Shown here: positions 5,986 through 28,496 of the stretch, piece after piece
Layout: each line of letters starts with the position of its first letter
Numbering within the stretch: the first letter of the stretch is position 1
DNA from: Nitratidesulfovibrio vulgaris str. Hildenborough
GTDB taxonomy: Bacteria > Desulfobacterota > Desulfovibrionia > Desulfovibrionales > Desulfovibrionaceae
Direction of reading: 5' to 3'
NCBI RefSeq assembly: GCF_000195755.1
Contig: NC_002937.3
Coordinates: forward strand, 420,001 to 452,000
DNA length: 32,000 nt
Translations under genes and position numbers: made by a program
Notes under the pieces: model-generated
Seen by the model: only the letters and a program-made list of their open reading frames with translations
Databases searched by the model: none
Told to the model about the DNA's origin: nothing

Positions 5986-7215
5986 CTAGTGCATCAGCTT
6001 GTGCAGCACGGTCTTCAGCGAAGCGGCGAGCAAGTGGTTCTTGCCGGTGGCTGCCGCGCAAGACTCGGTGAGGGCGTTGCGGATGACTTCGGAGACATCC
6101 TGGAAGATGGCGCTCTCGTCGAGGTCGACCTTGCTGCTCATCAGGTAGTTGAAGGCACGGGCCATGCCGCAGTTGGCGATGAAGTCGGGAATGACGTCCA
6201 CCACGCCGTCGGCGTATTCGGCCGTGGGGCCGTAGAAGATGTTGTCGTCCCTGAACGGCACGTTGGCACCGCAGGCGATGAGGCCGAGTCCGTTGTCCTT
6301 CAGGGTGGCGACCTGTTCGCGGGTCACGAGACGGGATGCGGCGCACGGCAGGAAGACATCTGCCCCGACGCTCCACACCAGCTTCTGGGTGTCTTCGGCG
6401 GAAAGCAGGTTGTCACCGGTGAGGGTGTTGCCGACGCGCTTGGCCAGCAGTTCCTTCACCTGTTCGAAGGTGAGGCCCTCGGTGGAGACGAGGCCAGCGG
6501 CACGGTCGATGATGCCGACGACCTTCGCGCCATTGGCGGCAAGGTAGTAGGCTGCGGTGCCGCCCACGTTGCCCCATCCCTGCACGATGACGCGCTTTCC
6601 GGCGACGCTGTCACCCTTGATCTCGTAGTAGTGTCTGACCGATTCGGAAACGCCGAAGCCGGTGATCAGGTCGGCCACGAGATACTTCTTCGCCGGGTCG
6701 GGGGTGTAGGCCGGGTTCACCACGGGCATGGTGACGCCGCCGCGCAGCTGGCAGATCTTCTGGATGCGCAGTTCTTCGGAGGGGTGGAAGTGACCGTTGA
6801 CGATGCCCTCCTGCGGGTGCCAGAGGCCGTATTCCTCGGTGTTGGGGATGACGTCCTTGATCTCGCAGACGTTCAGGTCGCCACCGGTGCCGTAGTAGCT
6901 CTTCAGCAGCGGCATGACAGCCTTGTACCAGCGGTTGAGCACGTCGTTCTTCCGGGGGTCTGCCGGGTCGAAGTTGATGCCCGACTTGGCGCCGCCGATG
7001 TGCGGGCCCGATACGGCGAACTTGATTTCCATGGTCTTGGCGAGCGACACGACCTCGTGCTTGTCCAGCCCCTTGCGCATGCGGGTGCCGCCACCGGCGG
7101 CGCCACCGCGCAGCGAGTTGATGACGGCCCAGCCGGTGGCGTCGGTTTCCGCATCGTGCCATTCGAACACGATTTCAGGGGCCTTGTTTTCGAATGCGTT
7201 CAGAAGGTCTTTCAT
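5986..7215 (-). CDS. Glu/Leu/Phe/Val-family amino acid dehydrogenase
   Basis: 409 aa. Catalytic-Lys motif region (FAVSGPHIGGAKSGINFDP) and dinucleotide fold (VIVQGWGNVGGTAAYYL). AAGGAG lies 7 nt before the ATG at 7215. Confidence 0.88.
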   Translation of the reverse strand: MKDLLNAFENKAPEIVFEWHDAETDATGWAVINSLRGGAAGGGTRMRKGLDKHEVVSLAKTMEIKFAVSGPHIGGAKSGINFDPADPRKNDVLNRWYKAVMPLLKSYYGTGGDLNVCEIKDVIPNTEEYGLWHPQEGIVNGHFHPSEELRIQKICQLRGGVTMPVVNPAYTPDPAKKYLVADLITGFGVSESVRHYYEIKGDSVAGKRVIVQGWGNVGGTAAYYLAANGAKVVGIIDRAAGLVSTEGLTFEQVKELLAKRVGNTLTGDNLLSAEDTQKLVWSVGADVFLPCAASRLVTREQVATLKDNGLGLIACGANVPFRDDNIFYGPTAEYADGVVDVIPDFIANCGMARAFNYLMSSKVDLDESAIFQDVSEVIRNALTESCAAATGKNHLLAASLKTVLHKLMH

Positions 7216-9500: not shown

Positions 9501-11063
9501 CTACGACGTGCGCAGCTCGCCGATGAAGAGCTTGAGCTTCTGCAGAAGCTCCTTGGCCTTTTCCGGCTGCTCACCGATGAGGTTCTTCAGCTGGAACTGG
9601 TCGTTCCGCCTGTCGTACAGCTCGTCGGTGTGGGGGACGGATACTTCGGCCCCCGGCACGCAGGTCCACATCTCTTCCTTCATCTCCAGCTTGGCAGACT
9701 GGGCACCGGCGTTGCCGCCCTTGCCGGAGCCGTCGTAGAAGACCTTGTTCATGGAATCCGTGTCGATCTCCCTCTGCAGCCAGTGGATGTAGCTGTAGTC
9801 GTGATCGATGATGGACCATGACATGCCGTAATAGCCCGCGATGGCGAAATCGCGCACCTTGTCGGTCTCGCCGCGCATGACGGGCAACAGGCTGATACCG
9901 TGCATGTCGTCGCCTGCATAGGTGGTGATGCCTTCGTGTCCGGCCTCGGCAAGGGCTTCGAGCCCCATGCCCAGACCATCGACCACCGTGGCGGTGATGT
10001 CCACGTTCTGTACGAACGACGATATGCGCTTGCCACCCTCAAGGCCGGGGACCCGGATGAGCAGGGGCACGTGCACCAGTTCTTCGTAGGGCCACGGACG
10101 GCATTTGCGCATCAGTCCATGACCGTGTTCGCCGCTGCCCATGGGCTGTCCGTGGTCGGAGGTGATGACGATCATGGTGTCGTCCCACAGCCCCTGCGCC
10201 TTGAGCGAGTCGAACAGTTTGCCGAGCCATTTGTCGACGAGGGTCACCTTCTCCGCGTAGAGGGCGCGGATGTGTGCGCATTCCTCTTCGGTCATGACAC
10301 CGTCGATTTCGGTCCACGGGGCGAGCAGCAGCGGGTTGCCCGTGTAGTCGGGGTCGTAGGGGCAGGGCTTCTTCTCCCACATTGACGGCGGGTCCCAGGG
10401 CTCATGCGGGTCGAACGAGTCGAGCCACAGGAAGAAGGGGCGCTGCGGGTTGCGCTTCATCTTCAGCCAGTTGTCGGCCTCGGAGATGACCACGGAGGCG
10501 TAGTTGTCCGCATCGGAAGCCCAGAACTGGCGCTGGCGCAGGTAGCATTCCGTCTCGCGGATGAGCGACTTGCTCGACGAATCGTATTCGCCGTTCTCAT
10601 CCTTCTTCAGCCAGTTGGGCGAAAGGTAGTCCTCGGCCTTGAACTCTTCGTCAAGCGGCACGTTGCAGAAGGTCTCGTGGTCCAGTTCGTGACCGTTGCA
10701 GAAACGTACGTAGTCGAACCCGCGAGAGTAGCCGTACTTGGGAAGGCGCATGGGGGGGGTGTCATACACCAGCGCTGTCTGCACCTCACGGCACCAGAGC
10801 ATGTCCGTGATGGAGGTGTCTTCGGTGGTCAGCGGACGCCAGCCGCTGTAGGGCAGCGTGAAACGGCCGGTCATGATGGCGCGCCGCACGGGGATGGTGG
10901 GCAGCCCTTCGCTGTAGGCGTTCTCGAACAGGAAGCCGTTTTGGGCGAACTTGTCGAGGTTCGGCGTCTTCACCACATCGTTGCCGTAGCAGCCAAGATA
11001 GTTGAACTGCAACGTGTCGAGCATGATGAAGATGACGTTCTTGATGTTGTCTTTCTTTGACAT
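9501..11063 (-). CDS. Sulfatase-family (alkaline-phosphatase superfamily) hydrolase, cytoplasmic, with Thr at the formylglycine position
   Basis: 520 aa. Metal-site strand NVIFIMLDT at the extreme N-terminus, so there is no signal peptide. The signature reads LPTIPVRRAIMTGR where canonical sulfatases have (C/S)xPxRxxxxTG. A later ITSDHG motif is present. AAGGAG precedes the ATG. Confidence 0.82.
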   Translation of the reverse strand: MSKKDNIKNVIFIMLDTLQFNYLGCYGNDVVKTPNLDKFAQNGFLFENAYSEGLPTIPVRRAIMTGRFTLPYSGWRPLTTEDTSITDMLWCREVQTALVYDTPPMRLPKYGYSRGFDYVRFCNGHELDHETFCNVPLDEEFKAEDYLSPNWLKKDENGEYDSSSKSLIRETECYLRQRQFWASDADNYASVVISEADNWLKMKRNPQRPFFLWLDSFDPHEPWDPPSMWEKKPCPYDPDYTGNPLLLAPWTEIDGVMTEEECAHIRALYAEKVTLVDKWLGKLFDSLKAQGLWDDTMIVITSDHGQPMGSGEHGHGLMRKCRPWPYEELVHVPLLIRVPGLEGGKRISSFVQNVDITATVVDGLGMGLEALAEAGHEGITTYAGDDMHGISLLPVMRGETDKVRDFAIAGYYGMSWSIIDHDYSYIHWLQREIDTDSMNKVFYDGSGKGGNAGAQSAKLEMKEEMWTCVPGAEVSVPHTDELYDRRNDQFQLKNLIGEQPEKAKELLQKLKLFIGELRTS

Positions 11064-11110
11064 GGTAGCTCCTTATTGCAAGGCGTGGTCGTCGTACGCC
11101 GCAGGATCGC

Positions 11111-12502
11111 CTAGGCGTTCTTGGGCGTTGTTCTCATGATGCCGATACCTGTGATGGCGCAGGCCATGGAGAAGACCGGAACAAGATAGTTGAGGAAGGC
11201 GTAAGGCATGTAGTCGGTTGCACTGACCCCGAGGACACCGAGGATGTAGAAGGCGTGCACGCTCCACGGCACCAGCGGGCAGCCGAGGGTCCCTGCGTCT
11301 TCGCACGTCCGCGAGAGCACCACCTGTTCGATGCCCGCTCTTCTGAACGATTCGCCGAAGGCGCGCCCGGGAACGACCACGGCGAGCATCTGGCTGCCTG
11401 TGCCGAACAGGATGATGTACGCCGCGGCCACGGTGGCGCCGACGAGCGACACCGCAGAGGTGGCACCGCGCAGGATGGCGTCGAGCAGCACTTCGAGCAC
11501 ACGGGCCTTTTCGAGGATGCCGCCGAAGGCCATGCCGCAGGTGAGCAGCAGGGTGGTGGCCATGATGCTCATGAGGCCGCCGCAGGAGAGGAGCTTGTTC
11601 AACTCGGGAGAAGGGGTTGCGGCTTTGTAGCCGGTCGTCAGGAACTTGGCGAGGTTGACCACCGACACGCCTTCGAACAGGGCGATTGCCAGTGCGCTGA
11701 CCACGCACACGACCATGACGGGCAGCACGGGAAGGCGCTTGTAGGCGAGCACGATCATCAGCACAGGGGGGATGAGGGCCACGGGGGAAAGCGAGAACGA
11801 GCCTTCGAGAGTGGTCAGGATGGTGTTGATGTTCCCCACGCTTTCTGCTGTGCCCGTGTGCATGGACCCGAGAATGGCGTACCCGATGATCGAGACGACC
11901 AGTGCGGGCAGCGTTGTCCAGAGCATCGAGGCGATGTGCGTGAAGAGCGGCACTTCACAGACGGCGGCGGCGATGTTCGTGGAGTCCGAGACCGGTGACA
12001 TCTTGTCGCCGAAGTATGCCCCGGAGACGATCGCCCCCACGGTCCATGCAGGGTCATAGCCCATGGCGGTACCCACGCCCAGCAGGGCGACGCCTATGGT
12101 GCCCATGGTGCCGAACGAGGTGCCAGTGGCCAGTGATGCCACGGCACAGAGTATGATGGTCGAGACGAGGAAGTGGTTGGGGGCGATGAGTTTGAGCCCC
12201 CAGTAGATGATGGTTGGAATGGTGCCCGAGGCCATCCATGCGGCGATGATCATGCCCACGAGCATGAGAATCGCCACGGCTATCTGGATGCGCCCCACGG
12301 CGGAGAGCATGCCTTCCTGCAATTCCTCCCAACTGTAGCCTATCCTGAGGCACATCGCCCCGGCAACGACCACAGCCACAAGGAGGGGCAGGACCGGAGG
12401 CCTGACCGCGACGACAACCGTTCCGTAAAGAATGATGGCTACGGGAACGATGAAAGTGAATACAGCCCACAAAAGTGATGGTTTTCTTGTGTCGGAACTC
12501 AT
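11111..12502 (-). CDS. nhaC: Na+/H+ antiporter, NhaC family
   Basis: 463-aa polytopic membrane protein whose length and sequence are typical of NhaC-type antiporters (from memory). It is the first gene of the minus-strand array. Confidence 0.8.
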   Translation of the reverse strand: MSSDTRKPSLLWAVFTFIVPVAIILYGTVVVAVRPPVLPLLVAVVVAGAMCLRIGYSWEELQEGMLSAVGRIQIAVAILMLVGMIIAAWMASGTIPTIIYWGLKLIAPNHFLVSTIILCAVASLATGTSFGTMGTIGVALLGVGTAMGYDPAWTVGAIVSGAYFGDKMSPVSDSTNIAAAVCEVPLFTHIASMLWTTLPALVVSIIGYAILGSMHTGTAESVGNINTILTTLEGSFSLSPVALIPPVLMIVLAYKRLPVLPVMVVCVVSALAIALFEGVSVVNLAKFLTTGYKAATPSPELNKLLSCGGLMSIMATTLLLTCGMAFGGILEKARVLEVLLDAILRGATSAVSLVGATVAAAYIILFGTGSQMLAVVVPGRAFGESFRRAGIEQVVLSRTCEDAGTLGCPLVPWSVHAFYILGVLGVSATDYMPYAFLNYLVPVFSMACAITGIGIMRTTPKNA

Positions 12503-14446: not shown

Positions 14447-14627
14447 CGACTGCACAAACAAGAGGCTTATGGCGATAAATTGCCAAAATTGATATATAGC
14501 AACCTTGCGCGGTGGGGCGCTTTCTGGTAGCGCAACAAAGAGTGTGCATTTCCGGTGCGTTCGGCACGGCAGCGGGTCGTGGTGCGGCCGGTGGACTCCA
14601 ACATCGAAGCCAGGAAGGAAGAGTCGC

Positions 14628-15377
14628 ATGAAGAGATCTTTCGTCTATACCGTCGTCATGGCTCTGGTGCTCGCCTTCGCCAGCGTGGCCGCAGCCGAAG
14701 AGAAGACCTACATCAACGGCATCGACGCCAACTATCCGCCCTTCGCCTACGTCGACAAGGACGGCAAGCCCGCCGGTTTCGACGTGGACTCCATGAACTG
14801 GATAGCCGCCAAGATGGGGTTCAAGGTCGTGCACAAGCCCATGGACTGGGACGGCATCGTGCCCAGCCTGCTGGCGAAGAAGATCGACATGGTGTGCTCC
14901 GGCATGTCCATCACCGACGCGCGCAAGAAGCAGATCACCTTTTCCGAGCCCTACTGGACGGTCTCGCAGGTGTTCGTGGCCAAGAAGGACAGCAAGCTCT
15001 CCGTGGATGACGTCTACAAGGGCAAGAAGAAGCTGGGCGTGCAGCGCGGCACCTCTGAAGCCGACGCCCTCCAGAAGCAGGCCCCCGAAAAGGGCTGGAA
15101 CTTCGAACTGCGCTTCTACGATTCGGCCCCGCTCGCCATCGAGGACGTGCTGAACGGACGCATCGACGCCGCAGGCATGGACATCCTGCCCGCCGAAGAC
15201 GCCGCCGCCAAGAAGCCCGTCAAGATCCTCGGCACCTTCGGTGAGCCCGAAGACTTCGGCGTGGCCACCCGCAACGAAGACACCGAACTTCGCGGCAAGA
15301 TCAACGAAGGCTACAAGCTGCTCATGGCCGACCCCTACTGGCAGCAGCTGAAGGACAAGTACCTCCAGAAGAAGTAG
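14628..15377 (+). CDS. Amino-acid ABC transporter, periplasmic substrate-binding protein (family 3)
   Basis: The ORF track starts at 14505. I prefer the ATG at 14628, which is preceded by AGGAAGGAAGAG. Signal peptide MKRSFVYTVVMALVLAFASVAAA. SBP_bac_3-like sequence (INGIDANYPPFAYVDKDGKPAGFDVD). Confidence 0.9.
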   Translation: MKRSFVYTVVMALVLAFASVAAAEEKTYINGIDANYPPFAYVDKDGKPAGFDVDSMNWIAAKMGFKVVHKPMDWDGIVPSLLAKKIDMVCSGMSITDARKKQITFSEPYWTVSQVFVAKKDSKLSVDDVYKGKKKLGVQRGTSEADALQKQAPEKGWNFELRFYDSAPLAIEDVLNGRIDAAGMDILPAEDAAAKKPVKILGTFGEPEDFGVATRNEDTELRGKINEGYKLLMADPYWQQLKDKYLQKK

Positions 15378-15405
15378 CCACAGCCCGCAGGGGCAAGGCT
15401 TTGCC

Positions 15406-15450
15406 GTCCGGAAGGCGGGGAATTCTCCTGTCGCCTTCCGGACCTTTTTT
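15406..15450 (+). terminator. Intrinsic terminator/attenuator between the ABC binding-protein gene and the permease gene
   Basis: Perfect 12-bp stem GTCCGGAAGGCG (15406-15417) / CGCCTTCCGGAC (15432-15443), followed by C then TTTTTT (15445-15450). Confidence 0.7.
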
Positions 15451-15518
15451 CGGTATGACTTCCGCTCGCGCCGTGACGCGACAGAAACAGAGGAGGGCGG
15501 GAACCACCCCGCGGGCGT

Positions 15519-16196
15519 ATGCTGGACAAACTCTTGGTCATATGGGACGCGCTTCCCTATATTCTCGAAGGCTCGGCCGTCACCATCGCCACGGTGCTGG
15601 GGTCGCTGGCCCTCGGGTTCTGTATGGGCGTACCCATGGCCGTGGCGCAGGTCTACGGCGGTCGCCCTGTGCGGTATCTCGTGGGGCTGTATGTCTGGTT
15701 CTTCCGGGGTATGCCCATTCTCGTGCTGCTCTTTCTCTTCTATTTCGGTCTGTTTCAGGCTCTCGACCTCAATCTGAGCGCGTTCACGGCCTCGTGTCTC
15801 GTGCTTGGCATGGCGAGTGCCGCCTACCAGTCGCAGATATTCCGCGGTTCGATACTCGCCTTGCCGCAAGGGCAGCTGAAGGCGGCCCGCGCACTGGGCA
15901 TGAGCGACGGTGCGGCCATCCGCAGCATCGTCCTGCCGCAGGCGTTGCGTCTTTCCATTCCGGCGTGGTCCAACGAATACTCCATCCTGCTCAAGGACTC
16001 GGCACTTGCCTTCGTGCTTGGCACCCCGGAAATCATGGCCCGCACCCACTTCGTGGCATCGCGGACGTATGAGCACCTGCCATTGTACATGACGGCGGGG
16101 GCCCTCTACTTCATCATCACGCTGGCGGGGCTGAAGGTGCTGCGCCACCTCGAACGCAAGACCCGTATCCCCGGTTACGCCGGGTACGGCATCTGA
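15519..16196 (+). CDS. Amino-acid ABC transporter permease (His/Glu/Gln/Arg family)
   Basis: 225 aa with multiple TM helices. EAA-like loop (QGQLKAARALGMSDGAAIRSIVLPQALR). Confidence 0.9.
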   Translation: MLDKLLVIWDALPYILEGSAVTIATVLGSLALGFCMGVPMAVAQVYGGRPVRYLVGLYVWFFRGMPILVLLFLFYFGLFQALDLNLSAFTASCLVLGMASAAYQSQIFRGSILALPQGQLKAARALGMSDGAAIRSIVLPQALRLSIPAWSNEYSILLKDSALAFVLGTPEIMARTHFVASRTYEHLPLYMTAGALYFIITLAGLKVLRHLERKTRIPGYAGYGI

Positions 16197-16204
16197 GGAC
16201 GAGC

Positions 16205-16972
16205 ATGACCGACAACGCAACACCCATCCTGCGGGTTGAACATCTTTCCGTGGCCCTTGGCGGTCGTCCCATCCTCCGTGACGTGTCCCTCGATGTGGAC
16301 AGGGGACAACTCAAGGTGCTCATCGGGCCTTCGGGGGCGGGCAAGAGCACTCTCCTGCAGTGCATCAACCATCTCATCCTGCCCGATGCCGGTACGGTGT
16401 CGCTGGAAGGGCGCGCCGTCGACGCACACCGCAAGGCCGACCTCTATGCCTTCAGGCAACAGGTTGGCATGATCTTTCAGGAATTCAACCTGTTCGACCA
16501 CCTCGACGCGCTTTCCAACGTGAGCATCGCGTTGCGCAAGGTGCGCGGCATGAGTCGCGCTGCCGCCCGTGAACGGGCCATGGCCGAACTCGAGCGTGTG
16601 GGGCTTTCTTCGCGTCATGCCCTTTACCCCGCACAGCTTTCGGGTGGGCAGAAGCAGCGTGTGGCCATCGCGCGCGCCCTAGCCATGGACCCCAAGGTGA
16701 TGCTGCTCGACGAACCCACCTCCGCCCTCGACCCTGAACTGGTGGGCGAAGTGCTGGCGGTCATCCGCGACCTCGCCAAGGGGGGCATGACCATGGTCAT
16801 GGCCACACACCAGATGGATTTCGCGCGTGCCCTCGCCAACGAGATCGTGTTCATGGAGCGTGGCGCCATCATCGAACGGGGGTCGCCCGCCGAATTGCTG
16901 GCGCCCGGCGCCGGAACCCGTACGCAGGACTTCTGTAGTCGCCTCACCGACCTGTGCGAGGAGAGCTGCTAG
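16205..16972 (+). CDS. Amino-acid ABC transporter ATP-binding protein
   Basis: Walker [10 protein letters not shown], signature [15 protein letters not shown], Walker [12 protein letters not shown]. Confidence 0.93.
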
Positions 16973-17646
16973 TGTTCGATCCGGATTTCGTCTTCGGGGA
17001 GATGCTCCCCGCGCTGAACCGGGGGCTCATCACAAGCATGATGCTCATCGTGCCGTCGGCCACGCTTGGGCTTCTCTTCGGCATCATCGTGGGTACGGGC
17101 CGCGTGTTCGGCCCGGCATGGGTCCGCAAGGCGGGCGACATCTACACGGCAACCTTCCGGGGCGTGCCGCTGGTCGTGCAGCTCATGATCATCTATTTCG
17201 GGCTGCCCAACATCGGCATCTACCTCGAACCCTTCCCCGCCGCCGTGCTGGGCTTCGTGCTGTGCAGCGCGGCCTACAACTCCGAATATGTGCGCGGTGC
17301 CCTGCTCTCCATCAGGCAGGGCCAGCTCAAGGCGGCGCAGGCCCTTGGCTTCAGCAAGCTGAAGACCGTGCTCTTCATCGTCGTGCCGCAGGCCGTGCGT
17401 CGTGCCCTGCCCGGTTGCGGGAACGAGATCATCTATCTCATCAAGTACTCATCGCTGGCGTATGTCATCACCTGTATCGAGCTCACGGGAGAGGGCAAGG
17501 TGGTGGCGGCGCGCAGTTTCCGGTTCACCGAAGTGTTCCTGTTCGTCGGCGCCTACTACCTGTTTCTGGTGACGCTGGCGTCGTGGATTCTGCACCGGGT
17601 GGAACAGCACTTCAGCATCCCCGGTTTCGGTCGCGCCAAGCAGTAG
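16972..17646 (+). CDS. Amino-acid ABC transporter permease (second subunit)
   Basis: EAA loop QGQLKAAQALGFSKLKTVLFIVVPQAVR. The track starts at a GTG at 16954. I prefer the in-frame GTG at 16972, which overlaps the ATPase stop (TAGTG) and has GAGGAG 8 nt upstream. Confidence 0.85.
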   Translation: MFDPDFVFGEMLPALNRGLITSMMLIVPSATLGLLFGIIVGTGRVFGPAWVRKAGDIYTATFRGVPLVVQLMIIYFGLPNIGIYLEPFPAAVLGFVLCSAAYNSEYVRGALLSIRQGQLKAAQALGFSKLKTVLFIVVPQAVRRALPGCGNEIIYLIKYSSLAYVITCIELTGEGKVVAARSFRFTEVFLFVGAYYLFLVTLASWILHRVEQHFSIPGFGRAKQ

Positions 17647-19879: not shown

Positions 19880-20310
19880 ACCCCATCGAAGGGAGAGGAA
19901 CGTTCGCGGCGGGTCTCGACGTCGCGCGGGAATGGGATGCCACCCGGGGCGGTGCGGATGCCCGGATGTACAAGCCTCGAAGGCGATGGTCCATGCCGAT
20001 TGCCGCACTCCAGCAGTGTTGGCCTCCTCCCGTGCCGAACATAACTGTGACGGCATCCGCTGTCAGCCCGTGACCATCGGGCGCGGGCAGGTCACCGCGG
20101 CACGCCATGCGTCCGTTGCGGCTTGCGCCGAGGGGGGCTATAGCCAAGGGCGGCACAGGCGACAGGGGCCTGCCGCAGCGAGTGTACCGCAGGGAGAGGG
20201 CCAGCGGCCATTGACGCTGCCTGCGTCGTCGGTCGGCCCGCAGCATGCGCCCCTCCGCGTTCGTCCGTGTCCACAATCCGCGCCATTCGCGCAGTCAGCA
20301 AGGAGCCAAC

Positions 20311-21510
20311 ATGTCCGACGTCTTTCGCGTGTCACGCCGAGTGCAGCAGATACGCATCTCCGCCACCAAGCTCATGCCCATGCTCGCCGCCCGCGTGGGC
20401 GGTTGCGTTTCACTCGGTCAGGGCGTGCCTTCGTTCCGCACACCCGAACACATCGTCGAGGCCGTATGCCGTGCCCTGCGGGACAAGGCCGATGCGGGGC
20501 GCTACACCCTGCAACCGGGTATGCCTGCTCTCCGCGAGGCCATCGCCGCCGACCTTGCCGCCCGCAAGGGCTACATGGTGAACCCCGACTCTGAGGTCGG
20601 CGTCACCGTGGGAGCCATGGAAGCCCTGCTCATGGCCCTGCTCACGGTGGTGGACAGGGGCGACGAGGTGATCATTCCCTCTCCGGGGTATGCCTCGCAT
20701 GCCGAACAGGTGCTCATGGCTGAAGGGGTCCCGGTGCACGTTCCGCTGCGTGCCGACGACTGGGGGCTGGATGTGGACGCCATCCGCGCTGCGGTGACGC
20801 CGAGGACGCGCGCCGTCATCGTCTGCAATCCCGGGAATCCCACCGGAACGGTCTATGACGATGCCGACGTGCGCGCCCTGTGCGAACTCGCACTGGAGCG
20901 CAACATCATGCTCATCTCCGACGAGACCTACGACTACATGGTCTATGGCGGGGGTGAACCCCTGAGCCCCGCCAGTCTGCCGGAGATGCGCCGCCATGTC
21001 ATCGTGGTCAACTCGTTCTCCAAGAAGTACGCCCTCACGGGCTGGCGTGTCGGCTACTGCGCCGCAGACGCCGCATGGATGGGTGAACTGCTGAAGGTGC
21101 ACGACGCGGCAGCCATCTGCGCCCCCGCCGTCTCGCAGTATGCCGCCCTTGCCGCCCTCACCGGGCCGCAGGATTGTGTGGATGACATGCGTGCGGCCCT
21201 TTCCGCGCGGCGCAACCTCGCCTGTGCGCGACTCGACGCCATGGCCCCCCACTTCGACTATGTGCAGCCACGCGGTGCGTTCTACATCATGGCGCGGTAC
21301 ACGTTCACCGATGCCCCGTCGGACATGGTCGCCCGTAGGCTGCTGGAAGAGGGGCGTGTCATCACCGTGCCGGGCGCGTCGTTCGGCCCCACGGGCGAGC
21401 GGCATCTTCGCCTCTCGTTCGGCATGGAAGAGGCGGAATTGGACGAAGCCTTCGACCGTATGGCGGCGTGGACACAGCGCGTCGTGGCGTCGGGCGGGCT
21501 TGGAGGCTAG
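20311..21510 (+). CDS. Class I/II PLP-dependent aminotransferase (aspartate/aromatic type)
   Basis: The ATG at 20311 is preceded by AAGGAG. PLP-Lys motif SFSKKYALTGWRVGY and NPGNPTG motif. The track ORF begins upstream at 20245. Confidence 0.9.
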   Translation: MSDVFRVSRRVQQIRISATKLMPMLAARVGGCVSLGQGVPSFRTPEHIVEAVCRALRDKADAGRYTLQPGMPALREAIAADLAARKGYMVNPDSEVGVTVGAMEALLMALLTVVDRGDEVIIPSPGYASHAEQVLMAEGVPVHVPLRADDWGLDVDAIRAAVTPRTRAVIVCNPGNPTGTVYDDADVRALCELALERNIMLISDETYDYMVYGGGEPLSPASLPEMRRHVIVVNSFSKKYALTGWRVGYCAADAAWMGELLKVHDAAAICAPAVSQYAALAALTGPQDCVDDMRAALSARRNLACARLDAMAPHFDYVQPRGAFYIMARYTFTDAPSDMVARRLLEEGRVITVPGASFGPTGERHLRLSFGMEEAELDEAFDRMAAWTQRVVASGGLGG

Positions 21511-25884: not shown

Positions 25885-27711
25885 CTATTCGTCCTCGTCC
25901 TGTGCCACGTCATCCTCGATGGCGTCGGCACGGCGCAGCAGTTGCTCTATCTGGATGTCGGCACCGATGATGCCGGTGATGTTGTCGTGCTCGTCCGTGA
26001 CCGCCGTGGAGACGGTGAGGATGAGCTGCCCTGTGAACTGCGACTGGTACACGTCGGTGATGTGCAGTTCACCGGTCTGCATGGGCCTGATGAACCACTG
26101 GCGGTTGGAGAAGTCGTAGCCGATGGGCAGCTGGTCGTACTTCGCCTGATAGGCCGGGTCGGTGATGGCTGCCGAGAGCAGCTTGCCGCGGTTGTCGGTG
26201 AGGTACAGGTACTGGATGAAGGGGTATTCCTGCACGAACTCGCGCATGCAGGGGTACTTGTCGTCGCCCACGCCCATGATCTGGCATTCCTTGGCCAGCT
26301 TGATGATGAGGCCCGCCGAGAGCTCGCCCGCCATCTTCTTGATCTGGTCGAACTCGGAGCCGAACAGCTCGGGCATGAAGCGGCGCACCAGCGTCTGCAT
26401 CTCCTTGTTGGAGAACGAGGTGTTGCGGCCGTCTTCGTAGGCCTTCATGATCTTGTTGTAGATGTGTCCCACGGCGGGGTGCTTCTTCGACACCTGATTC
26501 TCGACGGGCAGGCCGAGGTACTGGTTGATCCAGTAGGCGACCCCGGCGCGGCCCGACTTGTCGGTGATGATGATGGGCACCGGGCGGTTGAGAATCTTGC
26601 GCGTGTCGAAGATGTTGTAGATTTCCTCGTTCTTGGCGAGGCCGTCCACATGGATGCCGGCGCTGGTGGCGTTGAAGTCCTTGCCGACGAACGGGTAGTT
26701 GTCGGGGATGCGGTAGTCGAGTTCGGTCTCGAAGTAGTGGGCGATTTCCGAGATGACCTGCGTCTCGGCCGCGTCGTCGTCGCCGGTGAGCGAGATGTAT
26801 TCGATGACGAGGGCTTCGAGGGGCGTGTTGCCGGTGCGTTCGCCGAAGCCGAGAAGGGTGCAGTTGACCCCGGCGCATCCGTACATCCACGCCGTGACGC
26901 CGTTGATGAGCACCTTGTGGAAGTCGTTGTGCCCATGCCATTCGAGCCATTCGCCTGGGACGCCGGCCTCGTCTGTGAAGGCGCGCACGATGCGCTGCAC
27001 GGAACGTGGCAGGGTGGCACCCGGATAGGGCACCCCGTAGCCCATGGTGTCGCACAGCCGTATCTTGACCGGCAGGCCGCTGTCCTTGGACATCTCCATG
27101 AGTTTCTGCGCAAAGGGCAGGCAGAAGCCGGGGATGTCGGCGCGGGTGATGTCCTCGAAGTGGCAGCGCGGGATGATGCCCCATTCAAGGGCCTGTCCCA
27201 CCACCTTGAGGTAGTTCTGAAGAGCCTTCTCGCGGTCGAGACCCAGCTTGAGGTAGAGATGGTAGTCCGACACGCTGGTCAGCATCCCCACTTCATCGAA
27301 CTCCATGTCCCGCGCGATCTTGAGGTCGTCGACGTTGGCCCGTATCCAGCCCGTGATGCGCGGGAACTTGTAGCCCTTGGCCCTGCATGCCTCGATGGCC
27401 CGGCGGTCCTTCTGCGAGTACATGAAGAACTCGGAGGCGCGGATGAGCCCGCTACGCCCGCCCAGCTTGTGGAGCAGGTCGTACATATGGGCCATCTGCT
27501 TCACGGTGTACGGCGGGCGGGCCTGTTGGCCGTCGCGGAACGTCGTGTCGGTGATGAACATGGGCTCGGCGGGGCGCGGCATCAGAAAGATGTCGTCGAA
27601 CTCCACGCGGCTTATCTTCGAATAGGGGAAGATGTCGCGATACAGTTCGGGATTGTCTCTGTTCTCAAGCCTTACCCTTGTGGAGGCTCTGTTCAGATGG
27701 AGCAGGGTCAT
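25885..27711 (-). CDS. HMGL-like (2-isopropylmalate / homocitrate / Re-citrate synthase family) enzyme with a C-terminal Cache-like domain
   Basis: 608 aa. Catalytic motifs ITDTTFRDGQQ and EWHGHNDF. The C-terminal ~140 aa carry a Cache_1-like pattern (YLYLTDNRGKLL...DFSNRQWF...VYQSQFTGQLILTVSTAV...ITGIIGADIQIEQL). Its ATG overlaps the upstream stop (ATGA at 27711-27708). Confidence 0.88.
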   Translation of the reverse strand: MTLLHLNRASTRVRLENRDNPELYRDIFPYSKISRVEFDDIFLMPRPAEPMFITDTTFRDGQQARPPYTVKQMAHMYDLLHKLGGRSGLIRASEFFMYSQKDRRAIEACRAKGYKFPRITGWIRANVDDLKIARDMEFDEVGMLTSVSDYHLYLKLGLDREKALQNYLKVVGQALEWGIIPRCHFEDITRADIPGFCLPFAQKLMEMSKDSGLPVKIRLCDTMGYGVPYPGATLPRSVQRIVRAFTDEAGVPGEWLEWHGHNDFHKVLINGVTAWMYGCAGVNCTLLGFGERTGNTPLEALVIEYISLTGDDDAAETQVISEIAHYFETELDYRIPDNYPFVGKDFNATSAGIHVDGLAKNEEIYNIFDTRKILNRPVPIIITDKSGRAGVAYWINQYLGLPVENQVSKKHPAVGHIYNKIMKAYEDGRNTSFSNKEMQTLVRRFMPELFGSEFDQIKKMAGELSAGLIIKLAKECQIMGVGDDKYPCMREFVQEYPFIQYLYLTDNRGKLLSAAITDPAYQAKYDQLPIGYDFSNRQWFIRPMQTGELHITDVYQSQFTGQLILTVSTAVTDEHDNITGIIGADIQIEQLLRRADAIEDDVAQDEDE

Positions 27712-28496
27712 GGCGTGGTCGCCCTCCTTGAGGATGTGGGGTGGGACATCTGTGCGACGGCGTTGCGGAGTGCGAGGGCCTCGGGGCAGTCCGGGCGCAG
27801 CGTCTCGGCTTCGTCGATGGCACGCAGGGCCTCGTCGGGGCGGCCTCCTTCAAGCAGCGCCTCGGCTGCCTGAACGTACAGAAGTTCGGGCCTGTCGCCG
27901 TACAGCGCGGCTACGAGGCGGGGGTGGTCGTCGCCGAACACGTCGCGCACAAGACCTGCGCGGTCATGCAGAAGACGGGCCAGAAGCCTGTTGTCGCCGT
28001 GTGTGGCGAAATACAGGCACAGCAGCCTGCGGCTGCTGGCGAGAATATAGCGTATACGGCGAATCTCGCGGTCCATGCTCTCGCGGGTCTGCGCCAGCAT
28101 GGAGGCGAGGGGTTCGACGATGGCGAGCAACTCCTCGTCCATGAGCCTGCCCTGAAGGGCACGGTACTGCGGGGCGTAGTGCTGGTGCTGGTAGGCGTCT
28201 TCCTTGAGCTTGATGCACTCGTGGAAGACATAGCCGATGGCCCAGTCCAGCATGAGCGCCACGGGGCTGGCATGCGGGTCGCTGCGGAACAGGTGATGTG
28301 CCGTGTCCTTGAGGCGCCAGAGAAGCCCCTTGTTGACGGCTTCGCCAAGCAGGTCGCGCATGACGGGAAACGACACCGCGCCGGAGGCTTCGAAACGCTC
28401 GAACTGTGCTTCGAGGACGGCGCACGCCATGCAGTAGTCGCGCATGACGTCACGCGCGAATTCGGAAAGGTTGGCCTGTACCCAGCGTCTCGACAT
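27708..28496 (-). CDS. Hypothetical protein, predicted helical with a TPR-like C-terminus
   Basis: 262 aa. GGGAG lies ~9 nt upstream of the ATG at 28496. The stop overlaps the HMGL start codon. I recognise no motif. Confidence 0.65.
   Translation of the reverse strand: MSRRWVQANLSEFARDVMRDYCMACAVLEAQFERFEASGAVSFPVMRDLLGEAVNKGLLWRLKDTAHHLFRSDPHASPVALMLDWAIGYVFHECIKLKEDAYQHQHYAPQYRALQGRLMDEELLAIVEPLASMLAQTRESMDREIRRIRYILASSRRLLCLYFATHGDNRLLARLLHDRAGLVRDVFGDDHPRLVAALYGDRPELLYVQAAEALLEGGRPDEALRAIDEAETLRPDCPEALALRNAVAQMSHPTSSRRATTP

Follow-up and report, generated by a model that had tools for sequence, protein, structure and literature searches.

In Desulfovibrio, Bilophila, syntrophs, and many uncultured anaerobes, carbon enters glutamate synthesis through Re-citrate synthase. 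Desulfovibrio-like anaerobes use the oxidative branch of the tricarboxylic acid (TCA) cycle only to obtain 2-oxoglutarate and glutamate. Here, we discuss a gene of Nitratidesulfovibrio vulgaris str. Hildenborough that lies in a stretch of 32,000 nucleotides (contig NC_002937.3, positions 420,001 to 452,000; hereafter the window, meaning this whole stretch). Its product of 608 amino acids (aa) joins an HMGL-family catalytic part, very probably that of a Re-citrate synthase, to a C-terminal tail of the Cache sensor type. The gene is an ordinary member of the widespread and partly characterized Re-citrate synthase family, and the fusion is already visible in databases. What is new here is that the tail, as far as alignment can tell, keeps the published amino-acid-binding motif of the dCache_1 sensors.

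One paper (PMC12016533) states that Desulfovibrio vulgaris uses Re-citrate synthase and has an incomplete TCA cycle, and it lists SYN_02536 of Syntrophus aciditrophicus as a known Re-citrate synthase; its Table S1 supplied our reference sequences. The HMGL superfamily contains two unrelated lineages of enzymes that go by this name, with only ~27% identity between them, and the NifV-like one (HM1_2993, CAI83711, Teth514_0415) has no Cache tail. As for the Clostridium kluyveri type, SYN_02536 was reportedly characterized as a Re-citrate synthase by Kim et al. in 2013 and CKL_0973 of C. kluyveri by Li et al. in 2007.

Within the same superfamily, the C-terminal regulatory domains of LeuA and CimA bind the end products Leu and Ile and inhibit the enzyme, and the RAM domain of Sulfolobus homocitrate synthase is a lysine sensor. 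The catalytic domains of LeuA and CimA match the window protein structurally, with only ~24% identity, and their C-terminal add-on follows the same logic as the tail, but the LeuA_dimer fold is unrelated to Cache. In the PDB, the sequence closest to the catalytic part is that of the RAM-deleted Sulfolobus homocitrate synthase (PDB 6KTQ); the RAM domain of this enzyme has an unrelated fold, and the enzyme acts on another substrate.

Cache domains are principally extracellular: 78% are confidently predicted to be so, the only intracellular families are the small Diacid_rec and YkuI_C, and the domains attach to signaling outputs (PMC4822843). It is therefore atypical of the superfamily to find a dCache_1-type module in the cytoplasm and fused to a metabolic enzyme. 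The dCache_1AA sensors PctA, Tlp3, Mlp24/37, and CtaA (Gumerov et al. 2022, PMC8915833) have the PDC fold and the AA_motif in common with the tail, but they are two-module, extracytoplasmic receptors flanked by transmembrane (TM) helices and equipped with a signaling output, whereas the tail is a single, cytoplasmic, enzyme-fused module. KinD of Bacillus subtilis (PDB 4JGO/4JGP, pyruvate-bound) shares the Arg position with the tail but is extracellular and two-module, and it carries Ala at the position of Asp585.

Architecture and fold of the tail

The gene is a complete open reading frame (ORF) on the minus strand with its ATG at 27709-27711 and a strongly biased third-position GC (GC3 = 0.89). 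Positions 25888-26300, on which an earlier note on this DNA had focused, correspond to residues ~471-608 (the last ~138 codons), and the motifs quoted there (TTFRDGQQ, HGHNDF, TDNRGKLL, SNRQWF, SQFTGQLILTVS, ITGIIGADIQIEQL) all occur in the 608-aa ORF. The gene and the parts of its product are as follows:

25885..27711, (-): Re-citrate-synthase-type gene, complete, 608 aa (ORF list; stop codon 25885-25887)
27556..27711, (-): N-terminal extension (residues 1-52) with the clade-typical ...FPY... segment, kept in Desulfovibrionaceae homologues, SYN_02536, and CKL_0973
26800..27555, (-): HMGL-like TIM-barrel catalytic domain (residues 53-304; Pfam PF00682, E 3.4e-30)
26377..26799, (-): post-barrel helical subdomain, HCS_D2-like (residues 305-445; weak Pfam HCS_D2 match at 348-405)
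26272..26376, (-): connecting long helix (residues ~446-480, helix 451-475; secondary structure of the AlphaFold2 (AF2) model)
25933..26271, (-): single Cache/PDC module (residues 481-593; Pfam, PDB phmmer, Foldseek)
25888..25932, (-): C-terminal acidic helix/tail (residues 594-608), poorly conserved in alignments and with a low predicted local distance difference test score (pLDDT) at the extreme C-terminus

The Cache assignment is carried by profile, sequence, and structure searches. Pfam places dCache_1 (PF02743) at residues 483-593 (50.3 bits with a cut-off of 45, E 3e-13) and MCP-like_PDC_1 (PF22673) at residues 495-591 (45.2 bits, cut-off 27), and the tail on its own gives the same two Cache matches (E 2e-14 and 2e-12). 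Only positions 57-157 of the 240 in the dCache_1 profile are covered, which is the membrane-distal, ligand-binding module; with one module in a tail of ~130-160 aa, the protein lacks the two tandem PDC modules of a double Cache. Among PDB sequences, phmmer matches the tail to KinD, PctA, and Tlp3, with KinD best at 31 bits.

The full-length AF2 model has a mean pLDDT of 61 and is poor in the barrel, and it was left out of interdomain geometry. Its tail is better modeled (10-residue blocks over 441-590 average 64-90, mostly 74-90), and a tail-only model reaches a pLDDT of 79.7 and a predicted TM-score (pTM) of 0.75 with core blocks of 86-94. When searched against the PDB with Foldseek, the tail of both models returns exclusively Cache/PDC sensors, all at probability 1.0: KinD (TMq 0.60), Tlp3, PctA, PctC, Mlp24/37, CtaA, WalK, DcuS, and CitA, most of which are amino-acid receptors. 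The N-terminal part, for its part, matches the catalytic domains of homocitrate, isopropylmalate, and citramalate synthases. In the models, the tail has a long helix and a second helix, followed by two strands, further helices, three strands, and a last helix at the C-terminus, an order that makes it a predicted single PDC module, and the tail-only model shows the long N-terminal helix, five-stranded sheet, and intervening helices of the PDC fold. The connecting helix would be the equivalent of the N-terminal stalk helix of Cache domains; P447 and F450 in this region are each 96% conserved among fused homologues. The preceding subdomain (residues 305-445) aligns with the C-terminal part of CKL_0973, whose sequence stops there.

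Neither a TM helix nor a signal peptide is present in the protein (the highest 19-residue Kyte-Doolittle window is 1.08). Instead of sitting extracytoplasmically between TM helices and feeding a signaling output, the module has a metabolic enzyme as its partner. A LeuA-type regulatory domain at the C-terminus was considered and rejected, as LeuA_dimer (PF08502) has no Pfam match in the 608-aa protein even at E <= 10 and the fold matches of the tail are all Cache/PDC. The combination of an HMGL catalytic domain and a C-terminal Cache module in a soluble protein is confirmed far beyond chance. The earlier note had proposed exactly this from the letters alone, namely an N-terminal HMGL-family catalytic domain, a Cache rather than a LeuA C-terminus, and a cytoplasmic location, and Pfam, the PDB sequence search, Foldseek on the AF2 models, and the hydropathy profile bear it out.

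The putative ligand pocket and what it may bind

In the AA_motif of dCache_1 sensors, Y121, R126, and W128 contact the carboxylate of the ligand, and Y144 and D173 its amino group (PctA numbering; PMC8915833); the two halves of the motif are separated by a short spacer. When aligned with PctA by phmmer, the window protein has a matching residue at each of the five positions (Y532, R537, W539, Y555, and D585), and its W-to-Y spacing is identical to that of PctA. F540 stands in place of PctA Y129, a structural aromatic without ligand contact (PMC10589655). The pocket residues map as follows:

26092..26118, (-): N-terminal half of the putative pocket, Y532-D-F-S-N-R537-Q-W539-F540 (PctA Y121, R126, W128, Y129), from the alignment to PctA
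26041..26049, (-): Y555-Q-S557 (equivalent of PctA Y144 plus the invariant Ser), from the alignment of fused homologues
25957..25959, (-): D585 (equivalent of PctA D173, the ligand amino-group contact), from the alignment of fused homologues

Conservation was counted in 74 tail-bearing homologues from many phyla. Overall, the tail is less conserved than the barrel (mean top-residue frequency 0.57 vs 0.77). W539, F540, S557, L563, and D585 are nonetheless invariant in 74/74, T560 is conserved in 99% and R537 in 95%, and the Y555 position holds Y in 61 sequences and F in a further 6. Across the family, Y121 is the one AA_motif position that varies, the other four being conserved. The same pattern is seen in SYN_02536, which like the window protein has the full architecture including the C-terminal Cache-like tail and the same R, W, Y, and D pocket residues, but which comes from another lineage and does not have Tyr at the Y121 equivalent; no analysis of its tail was found in the literature searched. 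These counts show strong purifying selection on the putative tail pocket, and selection that concentrates on the canonical pocket positions speaks for a functional ligand site. Because Arg and Asp are conserved in combination, the ligand would be one with a carboxylate as well as an amino group. The invariant Ser557 is followed by Arg or Lys in 51/74 (Gln in the window protein), a residue that could pair with an acidic side chain, which is a weak hint.

Taking everything together, we lean toward the Cache module being a cytoplasmic amino-acid-type allosteric sensor on Re-citrate synthase. The enzyme would convert acetyl-CoA and oxaloacetate to citrate in the cytoplasm, as the first step of the oxidative TCA branch. 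An amino acid would bind the Cache pocket in the same compartment, with Arg and Trp holding its carboxylate and Tyr and Asp its amino group, and the connecting helix (451-475), which is conserved, would relay the signal to the catalytic dimer and tune its activity. In this role, the tail would parallel the LeuA regulatory domain that senses leucine in isopropylmalate synthase. The earlier note had likewise suggested that the fusion could be the point of allosteric control for entry into the incomplete TCA branch.

From the observed architecture, fold, orthology, and pocket conservation we infer ligand binding, the identity of the ligand, and an allosteric effect, and our confidence differs among the parts. 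The tail is probably a ligand-binding regulator; that its ligand is an amino acid has, in our judgment, an even chance. Glutamate, the end product of the pathway, is the first guess and the most economical candidate because the oxidative branch in these anaerobes exists to make glutamate, yet as a specific assignment it is doubtful, glutamine and aspartate being alternatives. We propose only tentatively that the tail is the first Cache domain to serve as an intracellular allosteric amino-acid sensor built into an enzyme of central metabolism. If true, a Cache module acting inside the cell on an enzyme and not on a signaling output would be a new job for these domains, and the motif of a "universal amino-acid sensor" would extend from membrane receptors to enzyme regulation. 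Glutamate (or some other amino acid) would then exert feedback control on Re-citrate synthase in many anaerobic phyla, and it would become clear how sulfate reducers and syntrophs control the glutamate branch of their split TCA cycle.

Several points weigh against an amino-acid sensor. The AA_motif was defined on two-module, extracellular dCache_1 domains, whereas the tail is a single cytoplasmic module, and the putative pocket was placed by sequence alignment. The Y121 equivalent drifts, with Glu in 34/74 and Tyr in 12/74 (the latter mostly Desulfovibrionaceae), the Y144 equivalent is His or Asn in Bilophila-type sequences, and in the divergent tails P0121, P0132, and P0153 the Arg is replaced by Lys or His, although W and D are kept. 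Enzymes of the C. kluyveri type work without a tail, no binding or kinetic data on the tail were found in the literature searched, and no specific gene link to glutamate was seen within the window. Finally, in a neighbor-joining (NJ) tree, the node of the clade that unites the window protein with the characterized enzymes has a bootstrap of only 50%.

Alternatively, the module may regulate the enzyme by sensing a metabolite other than an amino acid, such as an amine or polyamine, a nucleotide, or an organic acid (pyruvate as in KinD, citrate, 2-oxoglutarate, or oxaloacetate). Pyruvate-binding KinD is the best single PDB match by both sequence and fold, the single-module CitA and DcuS, which bind citrate and C4-dicarboxylates, are structural matches as well, the specificity of dCache_1 pockets has shifted to amines and purines repeatedly, and the family shows some variation at the Y121 and Y144 positions. 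However, amino-group binding has its hallmark in Asp585, which does not vary among the fused homologues and which the phmmer alignment pairs with Ala in KinD, and a buried Asp would disfavor polycarboxylates. The carboxylate-binding Arg, conserved in 95% of the fused homologues, is the position that separates amino-acid sensors from amine sensors, in which it is not conserved (PMC10589655). We regard such a ligand as unlikely.

Still less probable is a tail that binds no small molecule and serves as a structural, oligomerization, or protein-docking domain, its likeness to Cache being a relic. PAS and Cache domains do often mediate dimerization, the activity of the unfused clostridial enzymes shows that catalysis does not require the tail, and the Syntrophus Re-citrate synthase studied by Kim et al. 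in 2013 is said to be a homotetramer. The only invariant positions, on the other hand, are the canonical pocket residues R537, W539, F540, S557, T560, and D585 and not surface patches, and such pocket-focused conservation is expected of ligand binding rather than of a pure scaffold.

Identity of the enzyme and its public names

An amino-acid sensor of this kind would sit on an enzyme that is, with high probability given its sequence relationships, a Re-citrate synthase of the C. kluyveri type (EC 2.3.3.3). In BLASTP comparisons, the protein is 50.7% identical to SYN_02536 over 602 aa, tail included, 46% identical to CKL_0973 over residues 6-450, and 47-51% identical to the C. acetobutylicum and C. 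thermocellum homologues. It shares only 24-28% identity with NifV, LeuA, CimA, and the HM1_2993/CAI83711 lineage of Re-citrate synthases. The clostridial CKL_0973, CAC0970, and Clo1313 belong to the same catalytic clade and have the same motifs (46-51% identity over residues 6-450), but they end at ~445-455 aa without a Cache tail. The conserved R-D ... E ... HxH residues of the DRE-TIM barrel (R59, D60, E186, H259, and H261) are the same throughout the clade, whether or not a member carries the tail. The Re-citrate synthase type, which the earlier note had suggested, agrees with these identities.

A phylogeny was built from the catalytic region. A clade of 31 sequences, the one with the weak node mentioned above, holds the window protein together with both characterized enzymes; the tree is NJ only, with weak deep support. 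The Cache tail is present in 22/31 members, and the clostridial enzymes without it form a group (bootstrap 99) that branches from among the fused lineages; a tail that is ancestral and was lost in Clostridia is only suggested.

The best NCBIfam matches are homocitrate and isopropylmalate synthase models, far below their cut-off (at best 134.7 vs 462.9 bits), and an orthodox LeuA, NifV, or CimA identity was rejected since every NCBIfam equivalog score falls far under its cut-off. An enzyme that combines acetyl-CoA with pyruvate, 2-oxoglutarate, or 2-oxoisovalerate, its tail sensing Ile, Lys, or Leu, might appeal to these best matches, to a JGI label of isopropylmalate/homocitrate/citramalate synthase, and to the fact that substrate specificity can shift at 50% identity, but it is very unlikely, given those equivalog scores, a roughly twofold greater similarity to the two proven Re-citrate synthases than to any LeuA, NifV, or CimA, and orthologues in congeners that cluster with icd and aconitase genes and not with leu, ilv, or lys genes.

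Public records of close homologues (P0010, P0041, P0087, P0009) name the Re-citrate synthase family inconsistently and in part incorrectly. GenBank has listed the D. alaskensis G20 protein as a "putative cache sensor protein," and NCBI now uses "cache domain-containing protein"; other names are "histone-lysine N-methyltransferase," "triose-phosphate isomerase," and "isopropylmalate/homocitrate/citramalate synthase." None of the public names found for close homologues is Re-citrate synthase, and our analysis permits an annotation fix for the family. Full-text searches found no paper on the Cache tail, though Li 2007 and Kim 2013 may hold a remark.

Distribution and genomic neighborhood

The HMGL plus dCache_1 architecture is found in 120/120 close homologues listed (72-100% identity; Bilophila, Oleidesulfovibrio, Desulfovibrio, and Mailhella). 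A collection of species-representative genomes contains at least 600 matching stretches, of which the best 80 species-level loci were used for all locus counts. These loci come from Desulfovibrionaceae, Syntrophales, Syntrophobacterales, Desulfobacterales, Desulfomonilales, and Nitrospirota and further from Omnitrophota, Armatimonadota, Spirochaetales, Lentisphaerae, and Termititenax. Because the tail is present at 77/80 of them and in the characterized SYN_02536, the fusion is a standard architecture in many anaerobes and not peculiar to N. vulgaris Hildenborough. The earlier note had allowed for the domain proving both common and already characterized in this enzyme family; it is indeed common, whereas no characterization of the tail was found. 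Two of the loci, labeled Odoribacter splanchnicus (L017) and Betaproteobacteria (L009), hold Desulfovibrionaceae-like copies of 63-66% identity with the same YbhJ-type neighbor (see below), and these probably reflect mis-binning or contamination rather than transfer.

A library of representatives at 50% identity yields 247 relatives at E <= 1e-30, including tail-bearing members at 40-49% identity and unfused ones of ~440-476 aa. Other members of the same catalytic clade carry an N-terminal response-regulator receiver domain (P0124) or a C-terminal ATP-grasp / L-amino-acid-ligase module (P0145, 833 aa). The ACT-like tails of P0166 and P0196 score 20-21 bits, under the Pfam cut-off of 27, and are treated as a hint only. 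With a receiver or weak ACT-like domain replacing the Cache module, which is consistent with interchangeable regulatory add-ons, the catalytic clade looks like a modular regulatory toolkit.

An isocitrate dehydrogenase (IDH) homologue lies just downstream of the synthase at 16/80 loci, seven of them in Desulfovibrionaceae, and aconitase-family genes also follow the synthase at some of the 80 loci, with or without an IDH homologue. In related Desulfovibrionaceae (L018), the synthase gene with its Cache tail is directly followed by one for NADP-isocitrate dehydrogenase (492 bits, cut-off 490), which in turn precedes one for aconitate hydratase (907 bits, cut-off 612), a gene set that makes up the complete route from oxaloacetate and acetyl-CoA to 2-oxoglutarate. 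At seven loci (L003, L007, L009, L011, L012, L015, and L017), a YbhJ-type "hydratase" (NF008503, 1157 bits in L015) is found near the synthase instead of a canonical aconitase, and it may be the citrate-isomerizing enzyme in those Desulfovibrio-type organisms.

A different neighbor, aspS (aspartate-tRNA ligase), is located directly upstream on the same strand at 39/80 loci (L020-L078; e.g., L020:5291-8457). These are mostly metagenome-assembled genomes of the Syntrophia/Desulfobacteria type, in which a histidine-tRNA ligase gene usually precedes aspS. The resulting hisS-aspS-Re-citrate synthase order could be plain synteny or a hint of an aspartate/oxaloacetate link.

In the window itself, the synthase has no fixed partner gene: a homologue of its upstream neighbor is found at 1/80 loci (L010) and RlpA, whose gene lies downstream of the synthase, at 7/80. 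No IDH or aconitase was found by tblastn within the 32,000-nt window, and Rfam and tRNA scans of the window gave no match. The region just upstream of the synthase contains the following:

27723..27729, (-): Shine-Dalgarno-like AAGGAGG, 11 nt upstream of the ATG (read from sequence)
27708-28496, (-): 262-aa ORF whose end overlaps the synthase start codon in an ATGA

Because of the ATGA overlap with the synthase start codon, the 262-aa ORF is probably co-transcribed with the synthase. Its product has a weak C-terminal tetratricopeptide repeat match only and no NCBIfam match.

Three loci of amino-acid metabolism are found elsewhere in the window, none of them adjacent to the synthase and 4-20 kb from it: a gene of the Glu/Leu/Phe/Val-dehydrogenase family (5986-7215, (-)), a polar-amino-acid ABC transporter (SBP_bac_3 plus two permeases; 14505-17646, (+)), and a class I/II aminotransferase (20245-21510, (+)). 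At 9501-12502 (-), a sulfatase-family gene adjoins a Na+/H+ antiporter-family gene, and the GC content of the window falls to 0.57-0.59 near 8-10 kb, compared with ~0.63 elsewhere.

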